The notes beneath the pieces were generated by a model. The model saw only the letters and a program-made list of their open reading frames with translations, was not told the DNA's origin and did no database searches. This document shows, one piece after another, positions 18,118 to 28,928 of a stretch of DNA of 28,928 bases. The first letter of the stretch is position 1. Each line of letters begins with the position of its first letter. Source of the DNA: an uncultured Chloroflexia bacterium (GTDB taxonomy: Bacteria > Chloroflexota > Limnocylindria > Limnocylindrales > CSP1-4); the NCBI GenBank assembly GCA_963752475.1, contig CAVVYR010000023.1, forward strand, positions 1 through 28,928, in the 5' to 3' direction. The position numbers were made by a program, and so were the translations under genes.

Positions 18118-18210
18118 CCGACCGGGCGACCAGGGCATCTCTGGTCGGCTGGGGCAGTCGGCCGCGCAGCGTCGCTTCTTTCGGCGCCCGGGGCGGCCCG
18201 GCCGGATCGT

Positions 18211-18371
18211 GTCGCCCCCATCGACGCCAGCAGCCGCTCGTGGCCGGTCGTCGCCCGTGGGGGCCGGCTGGATCGTGTCGTCCCCATCGACGCCAGCAGC
18301 CGCTCGTGGCCGGTCGTCGCCCCCATCGACGCCAGCACCCGCTCGTGGCCGGTCGTCGCCCCCATCGACGC
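18211..18371. repeat. 39-bp tandem repeat: three copies plus one partial
   Basis: GTCGCCCCCATCGACGCCAGCAGCCGCTCGTGGCCGGTC at 18211-18249, 18277-18315 and 18316-18354 (1 mismatch each versus the first copy), with a partial copy at 18355-18371. Confidence 0.95.
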
Positions 18372-18582
18372 TATCGGCCCATCCGGCCGGTTCCGGTGGT
18401 CAACCGTCGTGGGAGTCGACCGTAGTCGCACACCACGACCAGCTCACGTCTCCGAGCCACTCGCATCCGGCGTCGCCTATGCCCTGCCACGCTCAGCGCT
18501 GGTAGCCGGTCGTCCCGCGGACCCCGGATCGGTGGCTACGAGGGTGACTACGGTCGACTCCGACGACATCTGTCCACAGCGG
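18340..18582. repeat. Dispersed intergenic element, copy A (homologous to 27906-28147)
   Basis: Aligns by eye to 27906-28147 with a single 1-nt gap; the last 106 bp match at 72/106 without gaps. Internal 24-bp inverted repeat at 18406-18429 / 18544-18567 (22/24). Confidence 0.8.
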
Positions 18583-18609
18583 CACCGCGGGTAGGGTTCG
18601 CGAGGGAGG

Positions 18610-18782
18610 GCCTGGGCCGGTGCGCCCGGGCAGGTGCGTGTCACTGGGCGCCTGGGCAGGTGCGTTTCACTGGGCGCCTGGGCAGGTGCGCCTGGGCAGG
18701 TGCTGGGCGCCTGGGCCGGTGCGTTTCACTGGGCGCCCGGGCAGGTGCGCCTGGGCCGGTGCGTTTCACTGGGCGCCTGGGC
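18610..18782. repeat. Composite minisatellite overlapping the stop codon of the minus-strand ATPase
   Basis: Eight copies of GCCYGGGCMGGTGC (18610, 18624, 18650, 18676, 18690, 18709, 18735, 18749) interleaved with four GTKTCACTGGGC (18638, 18664, 18723, 18763). Confidence 0.95.
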
Positions 18783-19584
18783 GGCGCTCGACCTGTTCAA
18801 CCGCGGGCTCCTTGCCCGTCGCGGCAAGCAACGCCTTCGTGTACTCGTGCTGCGGTCGCTCGAAGATCTGGTCACGCGTGCCATGTTCGACGATGCGCCC
18901 CTCGCGCATGACCGAGACACGCTGGCTGATGTGGCGCACAACGGCGAGGTCGTGAGCGATGAAGAGGTAGGCGATCCCGCGCTCGGCCTGCAAGTCCATG
19001 AGCAGGTTCAGGATCTGGCCCTGGACGGAGACATCGAGCGCAGAGACGGGCTCGTCACAGATGATCAGGTCCGGCTCCAGCGCCAAGGCGCGCGCGATGC
19101 CGACGCGCTGCAGCTGGCCACCGGAGAACGAGCTCGGGCGCCGATCGCCCAGCGAGGGGTCGATGCCCACTCGCCCCAACAGCTCATCGGCACGTCGTCG
19201 TCGCTCGTGGCTGTCGTAGAGCCGGTGGATGACCCACGGCTCGGCCACGATGTCGCGCACCCGGAAACGCGGATCGACCGAGGAGTACGGGTCCTGGTAG
19301 ATGAGCTGCATGTGCTTGCGCATCTCACGGAGCTCGGCACCGTCGAGAGCGAACAGGTCCTGGCCACGGAAGGTGGCCGTCCCGGCGTCGGGCTCGACGA
19401 GGCGCAGCAGGATGCGGCCGGTGGTCGACTTGCCGGATCCCGACTCACCCACGAGCCCATGGGTCTGTCCGGGCTCGATGGCCAGCGAGACGTCCTGGAC
19501 CGCCCGGACCTCACGCCGGCCCGAGCCACGGCCGCTCCGGAACGTCTTGGAGAGGCCGCGGGCGTCGAGGAGCGGTTCGGGCAT
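18766..19584 (-). CDS. Peptide ABC transporter ATP-binding protein (DppF/OppF-like)
   Basis: GESGSGKST, QLIYQDPYSS, FSGGQLQR, ICDEPVSALDVSVQ, IAHDL, PQHEYTKALL. Confidence 0.93.
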   Translation of the reverse strand: MPEPLLDARGLSKTFRSGRGSGRREVRAVQDVSLAIEPGQTHGLVGESGSGKSTTGRILLRLVEPDAGTATFRGQDLFALDGAELREMRKHMQLIYQDPYSSVDPRFRVRDIVAEPWVIHRLYDSHERRRRADELLGRVGIDPSLGDRRPSSFSGGQLQRVGIARALALEPDLIICDEPVSALDVSVQGQILNLLMDLQAERGIAYLFIAHDLAVVRHISQRVSVMREGRIVEHGTRDQIFERPQHEYTKALLAATGKEPAVEQVERRPGAQ

Positions 19585-27797: not shown

Positions 27798-27905
27798 CGC
27801 CAGGCGCTCTCCTCGCCTGACGACATCAAGACGAACCTGATGGCCCCGCGGGCGACCGTGGGGCATCAGTGTGCCCAGGTCACGTGGTAGAGAGACGATT
27901 TCGAC

Positions 27906-28147
27906 CACTTGTAGTCAGGCGTCGCTCCTGGCGACGCTATCGACCGACTGGGCCGAACTCGGTCGAACCTGTCGTCCGAGCCGACGGTAGGCCGGCAAGG
28001 CTGGTCGGATCGTCCGCCTCGGCGTTCGCCGGGTTTGCCAGCTATGCCCCTGCACGCTCGGGACCGGCGGCCGATCGTCACGCGATGGCCTCGGTGGTGG
28101 CTACAAGCGAGCCCAGGGTCGATGGGGGCGACCGCTGTCCACAACGG
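27906..28147. repeat. Dispersed intergenic element, copy B (homologous to 18340-18582)
   Basis: Shared blocks CGACGCTATCG, CTATGCCC..CACGCTC, GGTGGCTAC and CTGTCCACA, plus three GTCG-N7-CGAC motifs at matching offsets. Confidence 0.8.
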
Positions 28148-28198
28148 GCGAGGGTCTGCCCTCAAGCCAGCGTGTTGCAGGCACTCCACGAGCTGCTG

Positions 28199-28928
28199 CT
28201 ATCCGCGCCCGGCCGTCCGGATCTTGGCCATCGTGGCGGCCGTTGGCACGAACCGGACCGCATCGAACGCGATGGTGCGACCGCTCGCGGGATCCTCACC
28301 GGTCTGGTCGGTGAGCTGCACGATGGGCGTCCGCGTCAGGCGGTGGACGCCAAGGGCGACCCAGCCTCCGCGGCGCTTCGACTGATCGCGCACGCGCGTG
28401 ACCCAGCCGTCGGCGGTCTTGATCTTGTAGGCCGCCTTCTGTGACGTGGCATGCGGGCCCGGGATGTAGACCTGGACCGCGTACGCGCCCGCCACCGGCA
28501 GTTGCGGCCGCCAAGTGGCCGAGTGCGCTTCGACGTTGTTGCGCACCGGCACGTACCAGTGGTTCGAGGCGAGCCCTGCCGGGCCACGCTGCCAGCCGGT
28601 GCCGAAGCGCTTGAAGCCACCGTCGAGGTCATCGACGCGGACGATCGAGCCAGACATCTCGGTCTGGAGTCGCGGCGGAGCCGGCTCCGGTGTCGCCTTG
28701 GGCGCTGGTCGTGGCGTGGGTGCGGCCTTGGGCTTCGGCTTGGGTTGCGCCGTGGGCGACAGCCCGGAGTCGGTCGACGGCTCGGGTTCGGCTTCCCCGG
28801 CAGGCGCCAGCTGCGTCGGCGCAGGCGCAGGCGTCGCGGTGGGCTGCGGTGTCGTGGTGGGCTGCGTCGCCGCAGGCTCGAGTGTCGGCTTGGGCGTGGG
28901 CTCTGGCGTTTGCGTAGGCGTCGGCCCT
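28199..28928 (-). CDS. Secreted/surface protein fragment: Pro/Thr-rich linker plus C-terminal golvesin/Xly-CBM-like domain (5' end outside the window)
   Basis: VDDLDGGF, ATWRPQLPVAGAYAVQVYIP, A.Y.I, DQS..GGWVALG, IAFDAVRFVP. Upstream PTPTQTPEPTPKPT-type low-complexity linker with frameshifts. Confidence 0.7.
   Translation of the reverse strand, partial: GPTPTQTPEPTPKPTLEPAATQPTTTPQPTATPAPAPTQLAPAGEAEPEPSTDSGLSPTAQPKPKPKAAPTPRPAPKATPEPAPPRLQTEMSGSIVRVDDLDGGFKRFGTGWQRGPAGLASNHWYVPVRNNVEAHSATWRPQLPVAGAYAVQVYIPGPHATSQKAAYKIKTADGWVTRVRDQSKRRGGWVALGVHRLTRTPIVQLTDQTGEDPASGRTIAFDAVRFVPTAATMAKIRTAGRG

Follow-up and report, generated by a model that had tools for sequence, protein, structure and literature searches.

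What keeps three palindromes of the form GTCG-N7-CGAC at nearly constant distances in two intergenic regions whose remaining sequence has diverged? We pursued this question for copy A (refined coordinates 18342..18579, plus strand) and copy B (27908..28145, plus strand), two elements in a stretch of 28,928 bp that constitutes the entire contig C23 of the metagenome-assembled genome (MAG) of an uncultured Chloroflexia bacterium (GCA_963752475.1, here G000) and is referred to as the window. This source assembly comprises 4.25 Mb in 38 contigs at 68% G+C and is 88.8% complete and 5.8% contaminated; together with 48 congeners it forms a genus set of 49 genomes that are 57–95% complete. The results obtained support a previously undescribed dispersed family of the REP/BIME/MITE kind (repetitive extragenic palindromes, bacterial interspersed mosaic elements and miniature inverted-repeat transposable elements). 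More specifically, we assign a probability of roughly 60% to the reading that copies A and B are genus-restricted, non-coding mosaic repeats resembling REPs, BIMEs and REPINs (REP doublets forming hairpins) that are read by a protein, and that a helix-turn-helix (HTH) nuclease, P0001, is their source and likely partner.

An earlier note, made from the letters of the window, had placed the palindromes at 18355, 18406 and 18553 in one region and at 27921, 27971 and 28118 in the other. They occur exactly there, with 51 nt between the first two (M1 and M2) in copy A and 50 nt in copy B, and with 147 bp between M2 and M3. Across the window GTCG-N7-CGAC matched 18 times compared to 2.63 ± 1.58 times in shuffled sequence, and none of 100 shuffles reached 18. 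The words reported as common to both regions, CGACGCTATCG, CTATGCCC, GGTGGCTAC and CTGTCCACA, were all found in both copies. Direct similarity between A and B is weak: a BLAST comparison of copy A with the region of copy B aligned 71 nt at E 0.28. With copy B as the query, the strain variants of copy A were recovered at E 4.4e-8 and 5.4e-7, and E values for other family members were as low as 2e-25. The proposed check for further genomic copies, an nhmmer search of G000 with a nine-copy seed, yielded 37 full-length matches, 33 of which are non-redundant.

An alignment of 32 non-redundant G000 copies (A2; 286 columns, with one truncated copy, C6:209777, excluded) delimits an element of approximately 238 bp that runs from CTyGTrG to TGTCCACAAG. 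Each element carries three 34-nt units, M1 and M2 in direct orientation at one end and M3 inverted at the other, and each unit consists of the head TGTrGnCA, N3, GTCG-N7-CGAC, and the tail sGTAGT. Between M2 and M3 lie a core, ATGCCC-N3-CACGCTC, and a second inverted head (the inner head, GTGACTACGAG). GTCG, CGAC, ATGCCC and CTAC are invariant across the 32 copies. The outermost heads form terminal inverted repeats, CTTGTGG...CCACAAG, and one of the two ends has an additional subterminal unit. Copy A extends from the M1 head CTCGTGG to the M3 head TGTCCACA. Its M1 (18342..18375, plus strand) combines a GTGG head with the palindrome at 18355-18369 and the tail GCTATC, and M2 (18393..18427, plus strand; palindrome 18406-18420, tail CGTAGTC) follows 51 nt after M1. 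The core ATGCCC-N3-CACGCTCA (18479..18495, plus strand) is located 73 nt past the M2 palindrome and 74 nt before that of M3; the inner head GTGGCTACGAG (18532..18542, plus strand), an inverted head motif, belongs to the site class that is cut by an IS110-family element in another copy; and M3 is inverted (18545..18579, minus strand; palindrome 18553-18567, head TGTCCACA at 18571-18578). The corresponding parts of copy B are M1 at 27908..27941 (plus strand; palindrome 27921-27935), M2 at 27958..27992 (plus strand; palindrome 27971-27985), which follows 50 nt after M1 and has a head that is one base short, the core ATGCCC-N3-CACGCTC at 28044..28059 (plus strand), the inner head GTGGCTACAAG at 28097..28107 (plus strand), and the inverted M3 at 28110..28145 (minus strand; palindrome 28118-28132, head TGTCCACA at 28136-28143). 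A hidden Markov model (HMM) of the unit detected 151 units in 46 clusters in G000, mostly in the pattern '>><' with spacings of ~51 and ~153; '><<', '>>>><' and tandem arrays of period 39 or 51 occur as well. The element thus has the organisation by which BIME-like repeats are defined, that is, alternating or tandem extragenic units with conserved linker motifs.

Gene contexts were derived from our own crude gene caller based on third-position G+C content (GC3), which called 3428 genes and covered 79% of G000. According to these calls both copies A and B are located in gaps between convergent genes, as had been described. Enrichment in such gaps, for which the earlier note had suggested a test, was found as well (19 of 32 placeable copies compared to 573 of 3390 gaps, p 7.7e-8). 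Besides the 19 convergent gaps, the 33 copies occupy 12 co-directional gaps, 1 divergent gap and 1 contig end; the caller placed none of them within a gene. On their M3 side 29 of the 33 copies, and on their M1 side 22, have the 3' end of a gene as their neighbour, and in co-directional gaps 10 of 12 copies are oriented alike relative to the genes (p 0.039).

Genomes were scanned with a diagnostic pattern comprising the inner head and the M3 palindrome in IUPAC code with at most one mismatch; detection accordingly rests on motifs. In G000 the pattern matched 47 times. It occurred in 15 of the 48 congeners (21, 11, 7, 5, 4, 3 and 3 matches and eight singletons) and was absent from 33; a reversed control pattern gave 0–1 matches. 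Full-length copies numbering 19 were confirmed across 8 other genomes, and full-length elements were also present at 18 further loci of the congener G013. Outside the genus, the exact pattern gave a single match in 1 of 297 genomes of the same class (88 from other genera of the same family, 12 from family f2 and 197 from other families). A scan of the whole named genome collection returned 81 stretches; multiple matches occurred only in four MAG title groups (Candidatus Limnocylindrales, uncultured Chloroflexia, Anaerolineae and Anaerolineaceae), and those in other phyla were single and at chance level. BLAST with copy B against 40 relatives resulted in short matches only, which reflects the sensitivity limit of this search and not absence. 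The element is restricted to a single genus of the Limnocylindrales type, and its occurrence within that genus is patchy.

The spacing survey included 51 copies, 32 in G000 and 19 in relatives, and several of its outliers are mis-picks of the regular expression. The distance between M1 and M2 was 51 nt in 41 of the 45 copies in which three palindromes were found and 50 nt in 2 more; M2 and ATGCCC were separated by 73 nt in 27 of 36 copies, and ATGCCC and M3 by 74 nt in 24 of 36. Sequence in the 121 spacer columns is close to random, with a median pairwise identity of 0.34 compared to a column-permuted baseline of 0.28 ± 0.04, and spacer identity exceeded 0.5 in only 20 of 1275 copy pairs. In this lineage the ratio of indels to substitutions in non-coding DNA is 0.075–0.10 (21 indels in total). 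At such a ratio, neutral decay to this low spacer identity should have scrambled the lengths, and we therefore infer that the spacing is under selection. Since motifs and spacing (51, 73 and 74, and 147 bp between M2 and M3) were kept as the spacers drifted to near randomness, the element would be recognised as double-stranded DNA by a protein and not as a folded RNA. A 51/73/74-bp geometry with near-random spacers would represent a clean natural case of spacing-only selection. Copies at the same site in two species provided a view of change in place. Seven such pairs, all in the same orientation, displayed motif identities of 0.82–0.94 and spacer identities of 0.30–0.47. Compared to a spacer baseline of 0.33 ± 0.05 for unrelated pairs, only two of them stand out (0.43 and 0.47); in these two best-supported orthologous pairs motif identity is 0.90–0.91, which would argue that motifs change more slowly in place. 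Two points speak against constraint in situ: the other five pairs are at background level and could represent independent or repeated insertions, and fully decayed copies are missed, as detection depends on the motifs.

The earlier note had stated that the window contains no transposase, which is correct; elsewhere in G000, inverted copies of the element bracket an HTH-nuclease gene. At C6:160118-161303 two inverted copies, 90.5% identical and with their M3 ends inward, enclose P0001, a gene of 244 codons (C6:160415-161146). The product has an XRE-type HTH (Pfam E 1e-10) and, in an AlphaFold model with a predicted local distance difference test (pLDDT) score of 84, a C-terminal alpha/beta domain; residues 221–244 are predicted to be disordered. 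VIA-align matched the C-terminal domain to restriction-endonuclease-like folds, namely Upx, AF1548, Can2, NucS, Card1, McrC and BsaWI, with Z 8.0–9.6 and a root mean square deviation of 2.8–4.2 Å over 105–124 residues. Foldseek returned SduA for the whole model (E 7e-5) and C.AhdI, C.BclI and HipB for the HTH. E103, D116, E131 and K133 are invariant in 46 homologs of P0001. As judged from the modelled fold and the D...(D/E)xK motif, P0001 is a probable member of the PD-(D/E)XK superfamily; searches of Pfam, NCBIfam and PADLOC gave, besides the HTH, only weak nuclease-like matches (YhcG_C E 0.0055, YraN E 0.0021).

Gene and element overlap. The folded part of P0001 ends at LSMW218, and the right-hand M3 unit has as its head ATG TGG ACA, which encodes M217-W218-T219. 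From there, 25 further codons cross GTCG...CGAC, the tail and the inner head, and the stop codon TGA is located in the core (CACGCTCA, other strand). Solo copies, in turn, have neither a codon periodicity nor an excess of open frames, so that decayed fragments of one protein gene, the outcome that the earlier note had named as fatal to its view, are not what the copies are. The coding reading was rejected on G+C by codon position (0.66/0.68/0.69) and on 1.35–1.96 stops per frame compared to 1.68 in shuffled sequence. The idea of a gene fragment nevertheless touches something real, as the M3-side 87 nt of the element are the last 28 codons plus stop codon of P0001.

The element-gene-element cassette is present at the orthologous site in the congeners G013 and G048. 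In G048 (L222, G048:C111) the cassette is inverted relative to its flanks when compared to G000 (C6:159016-162346) and G013, and recombination between the two inverted copies would produce such an inversion. At a second locus, in G014, G042 and G024, the 3' end of a close P0001 homolog runs into an element in the same register, the gene being split in G024; a third locus, in G054, also has a homolog with a 3'-overlapping element in this register. Contig C8 of G000 (C8:637804-638109) ends 60 bp past an element copy, C8_637k, at the second locus of G014, G042 and G024, and may mark a second, unassembled cassette copy in G000. The identical gene-element overlap was also observed on two metagenome contigs (76% and 74% identity). 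There is one gene of the P0001 clade per genome, bracketed by two inverted elements in G000, G013 and G048. A quick maximum-likelihood (ML) tree of 45 homologs groups all 9 genes linked to an element into a single clade that contains no element-free gene (support 95 in the Shimodaira-Hasegawa-like approximate likelihood ratio test, SH-aLRT). No element was detectable at the P0001 paralogs of another locus or at homologs from element-free genomes (at most 63% identity, and one of 70% at the paralogous locus). The element is hence physically and phylogenetically tied to one clade of genes encoding an HTH and a PD-(D/E)XK fold; as kin are not independent, this co-occurrence does not amount to a statistical test. 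At the G000 locus of the cassette, only 38–110 bp separate the same convergent flanks in four element-free congeners (G009, G010, G001 and G008), indicating that the 1.6-kb cassette was inserted as a whole. Alignment of the cassette junctions to these empty sites revealed no clean duplication.

Of 8000 candidates scored, at least 1459 are homologs of P0001 at E≤1e-5. This wider family is commonest in Chloroflexota; its members are mostly unnamed or called XRE regulators and are often located on short contigs. At 61 distant metagenome loci with both flanks, inverted repeats between the upstream and downstream sides were scored against reversed sequence as a control, and 18 loci exceeded the 95th percentile of that control (Wilcoxon p 6.4e-5); self-complementarity downstream of distant homologs was not enriched (p 0.93). 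One distant locus (L237) displays a different 30-nt unit, of which two direct copies and an inverted one precede the gene and a single copy follows it. A search for this unit in 401 genomes of the class gave no match and, having no positive control, is uninformative.

From this arrangement we propose that P0001 is the likely mobilising or binding partner of the element, bracketed by inverted copies in the way that REPs bracket the gene of a RAYT (REP-associated tyrosine transposase). The solo copies would stem from the cassette, as they do in REPtrons, and the GTCG-N7-CGAC dyad would serve as the site for an HTH dimer. A bolder version, which we regard as possible but doubtful, makes P0001 a new repeat-associated enzyme and the counterpart of the RAYTs: as a dimer on GTCG-N7-CGAC it would cut near the GTAG/CTAC heads and spread REPIN-like 238-bp composites from a REPtron-like cassette, and the wider Chloroflexota-centred family (>1400 homologs) would have lineage-specific inverted repeats of like architecture. 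Several observations tell against the nuclease as partner. The gene family occurs in 38 of the 49 genus genomes, element-free ones included, and only a subclade tracks the element, and G006, an element-bearing genome that is 64% complete, shows no such gene. At the level of sequence the link to the nuclease is a correlation, and hitch-hiking, that is, an old insertion at the 3' end that travels with the gene and whose junction was inherited in one clade, would give the same co-occurrence. Hitch-hiking is the main alternative to the REPtron-like reading, and the two are inseparable on present data.

Insertion sites were compared among congeners. At the site of copy A, the same flanking genes are 7–232 bp apart and free of the element in G013, G048, G001, G010 and G024 compared to ~700 bp in G000; at that of copy B, the element-free gap is 13–117 bp in G013, G001 and G010 compared to 350–480 bp in G000. 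Conversely, G013 (L102) and G054 (L103) have elements where the G000 flanks abut. As the element is missing at orthologous sites of congeners, it was gained by insertion behind gene ends, mostly between convergent genes. The convergent gene beside copy B (28199-28657, minus strand; spacer 28146-28220, locus L106) differs at its C-terminus between G000 and G013, and the insertion of copy B seems to have replaced the last few codons of this neighbour and to have supplied a new stop. The earlier note had proposed a look for empty sites with target duplications; the empty orthologous sites were found, and the duplication signal is nil across 28 G000 copies, where the observed value is about that of the between-copy control. 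This result disfavours clean cut-and-paste movement. At L103 in G054, a 14-nt segment that is single in G000 flanks a 241-bp insert on both sides, the two copies matching at 11 of 14 positions with the last 9 included; being a lone case, it could be due to chance. Close copies furthermore share flanks beyond the 238-bp core that differ between subfamilies, indicating that the heads do not mark sharp borders of the moved unit. At the sites of copy A, copy B and L102, local alignments made from both sides ran too far into GC-rich DNA for junctions to be read, and we do not claim a defined cut-and-paste footprint for the element.

Mobilisation by a transposase was also considered. RAYTs, which the earlier note had suggested might accompany copies, were not found in any of the 49 genus genomes (Y1/RAYT, PF01797; the control search matched 6 of 14 reference genomes). 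In G000 no transposase is bracketed by units, since every one of the 46 clusters is a standard element, an array or a copy interrupted by an insertion sequence (IS), and no parent IS with ends matching the element was found there. A plain selfish MITE-like repeat, moved by some transposase in trans or by recombination, is a rather unlikely explanation. The nuclease gene would then simply carry an old 3' insertion, in keeping with the presence of its family in element-free genomes, and motifs and spacing would reflect the needs of the transposase. The terminal inverted heads with their extra subterminal unit, a patchy copy number (0–47 pattern matches per genome), the empty orthologous sites, the one 14-nt flanking duplication at L103 and a continuum from 95%-identical to saturated copies would all be expected of such a repeat. 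It is harder to reconcile with 0 of 46 unit clusters bracketing a transposase, with full matches at 18 further G013 loci that are all standard-length elements, and with shared flanks that run past the heads without target duplication across G000 copies. As G000 is 88.8% complete, a transposase may lie in its missing part.

Whether the element acts as a folded nucleic acid was assessed by several approaches. No Rfam family matched the window at the gathering score, and at E≤1 the only match at five loci was sX6 with 20 bits compared to a cut-off of 40. RNAalifold retained only the invariant GTCG/CGAC pairs (covariation term -0.14). Copy-specific complementarity compared to between-copy shuffles gave z values of 1.1 for M2:M3 and 0.0 for M1:M3, with no gain from hairpin extensions, and the spacers V1 and V2 folded no better than shuffles (mean z -0.07 and +0.18). 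The minimum free energy (MFE) of the whole element had z values of -2.3 on the plus and -1.95 on the minus strand, and similar folding on both strands is as predicted for DNA inverted repeats. A purely DNA-level reading has to contend with a 9-bp helix between M1 head and inner head that is 87.5% paired: 4 of its pairs changed on both sides compared to 1.5 in shuffles (reached by 2/500), and its covariation score was 0.214 compared to 0.170 (reached by 0/500). This modest support leaves room for a single-strand fold. An A/T periodicity of 10–11 bp did not rise above permuted sequence (peak 0.047, permuted 95th percentile 0.062). For M2:M3 the signal was marginal (61 cells changed on both sides compared to 50 shuffled, reached by 13/500). 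RNA libraries, available as contigs only, contained nothing usable over copy A; one oligo-dT contig touches copy B at a depth of 3.2 and, as carry-over of DNA is possible, is no evidence either way on expression.

A structured RNA or single-stranded DNA element, such as a 3'-UTR (untranslated region) stabiliser, a terminator or a small RNA (sRNA) with a functional M2:M3 stem and M1 hairpin, is improbable in our view. Its best arguments are the M2:M3 pair of copy A (32 nt, 84% complementary), the whole-element MFE, the double changes in the M1 head-inner head helix and in M2:M3, and the position behind gene ends; these are offset by the Rfam and RNAalifold results, z values of 0–1.1, spacers that fold like shuffles, strand-symmetric folding, and local stems of just 4–5 bp with 7-nt loops. 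Of the interpretations offered in the earlier note, the dispersed non-coding REP/BIME/MITE-like family and recognition of the DNA by a protein stood, and the structured non-coding RNA, with no Rfam match at the gathering score and weak or absent covariation, did not. BIMEs of E. coli bind integration host factor (IHF) and gyrase. A host nucleoprotein platform of similar type, with a nucleoid-associated protein or topoisomerase on phased sites that are kept for the benefit of the host, appears highly improbable here. The sum of 73 and 74, 147 bp, corresponds to 14.0 turns at 10.5 bp per turn, copies are enriched in convergent gaps, and motif identity exceeds spacer identity in the two best orthologous pairs (0.90–0.91 compared to 0.43–0.47). 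Against this, the A/T content lacks a significant helical periodicity, no host protein emerged as a candidate, and the element is dispensable, as it is missing in 33 of 48 congeners.

Copies of the element are themselves targets of an insertion sequence. A 1.24-kb element with both IS110-family domains (PF01548, DEDD_Tnp_IS110, E 8e-15; PF02371, Transposase_20, E 2e-26) and a specific short target interrupts one copy at C6:209984-211221 (locus L073, 385-1622), between GTGACT and ACGAG. A second element copy is split behind its M2 tail by a 99% identical derivative of this IS that has an internal deletion (C6:98861-99358). Both junctions fall between GACT and AC of the GACTAC/GTAGTC motif, on opposite strands. 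A third IS110 copy, C26:102013-103249, is located at a contig end; its right flank is not an element, and its other end is off the contig. In both full copies, which are 99.9% identical, the DEDD and Transposase_20 domains are located in two different reading frames, which could be due to a shared frameshift or to programmed frameshifting, and subterminal inverted repeats, CTATGAAG/CTTCATAG, are present at the ends. Targeting of REPs by IS110-family elements is on record in the parts of PMC1525189, PMC12288879 and 10.64898/2026.03.19.712850 available to us, and, as in those cases, an IS110-family element was found inside two copies of our element, in either orientation. This parallel concerns the element as a target and not its own spread.

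Other features accompany the two copies in the window. Upstream of copy A, M1-type units form a tandem array (18181..18371, plus strand) with periods of 66 and 39, which is shared with a paralogous copy on C29. A second, unrelated tandem repeat at 18604-18801 (periods 14, 26 and 59; unit CTGGGCGCCTGGGCAGGTGCGTTTCA) fills the remaining spacer of copy A and extends into the 3' end of a convergent ABC-type ATPase gene (18766-19584, minus strand); it is missing at the orthologous site in four congeners. Upstream of copy B, a GC-rich hairpin, GGCCCCGCGG-N4-CCGTGGGGC (27838-27862), follows the stop codon of the upstream gene and is conserved in G013; it looks like a native terminator, and copy B begins just beyond. 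Several other copies have a GC-rich hairpin directly after the M3 head. C24 and C8:206472-231964 of G000 repeat most of the window at 98.6–98.8% identity, and as strain duplicates both were excluded from element counts. Approximately 25 kb is thereby present in three near-identical versions (window 3441-28928, C24:8100-33544 and C8:206472-231964), probably due to strain heterogeneity in the MAG. In copy A, C24 departs from C23 at 16 of 243 positions and C8 at none, a pattern that may point to recombination or conversion among copies or strains. Differences in element presence between strains were looked for inside the G000 assembly, and none was found.

Extragenic palindromic repeats are common, and RAYTs are, to our knowledge, the only established class of enzymes that mobilise them; for entire groups of these repeats, the CGTC REPs for example, no partner is known. 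A second, independent enzyme class would stand behind bacterial extragenic repeat families if the RAYT-like role of P0001 were true. A functional link between nuclease and element would provide a testable second route for the origin and spread of such repeats and explain an abundant unannotated protein family; hitch-hiking alone would leave one more lineage-specific REP/BIME-like family. Our literature search found no paper on HTH/PDDEXK-associated repeats or on repeats in Limnocylindria, which does not show that none is in print.

The element shares features with several known systems. MITEs such as Correia/NEMIS and the ends of IS21, Tn7 and Mu have terminal inverted repeats, some with multiple subterminal transposase sites. 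Common to these and to our element are terminal inverted repeats, asymmetric 2+1 ends, a non-coding nature and similar size; in contrast, no parent IS and no consistent target duplication were found here, and the copies are far more diverged than those of typical active MITEs. In the portions of PMC2817692 and PMC3733652 available to us, RAYT-associated REPs, BIMEs, REPINs and REPtrons of Proteobacteria are described. With these the element has in common a GT[A/G]G head near a palindrome, direct, inverted and tandem arrays with linker motifs, location in convergent or co-directional and rarely divergent gaps, lineage-specific and patchy occurrence, and use as an IS110 target. REPs proper are palindromes of 20–40 nt with the head at the foot of the stem, whereas here the head is 6 nt away from a stem of 4–5 bp with a 7-nt loop. 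CGTC-tagged REPs (Di Nocera et al. 2013) are, as far as the accessible part of PMC3733652 goes, characterised by stems of 8–9 bp, loops of 4–5 nt, a CGTC/TGTC tag and a CCA tail; they are listed there for five phyla, Chloroflexi not among them, are located downstream of genes, and come with no report of a dedicated transposase. Our element resembles them in a palindrome that often starts with yGTCG (CGTC/TGTC), in its position downstream of genes and in that no dedicated transposase was found in G000, and differs in its stems of 4–5 bp, loops of 7 nt and tail sGTAGT. Unlike REPINs, the dispersed unit is a rigid, asymmetric composite of 238 bp and not a hairpin of 20–40 bp or a simple doublet. 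As in the REPtrons described in these sources, a single-copy gene is flanked by inverted repeat copies; the gene here encodes an HTH and a PD-(D/E)XK fold instead of an HUH enzyme, and the RAYT by which REPtrons are defined was found in 0 of the 49 genus genomes. Compared with these systems, the repeat family itself is of a familiar kind, and what is new is a non-RAYT nuclease cassette together with conservation of spacing only.

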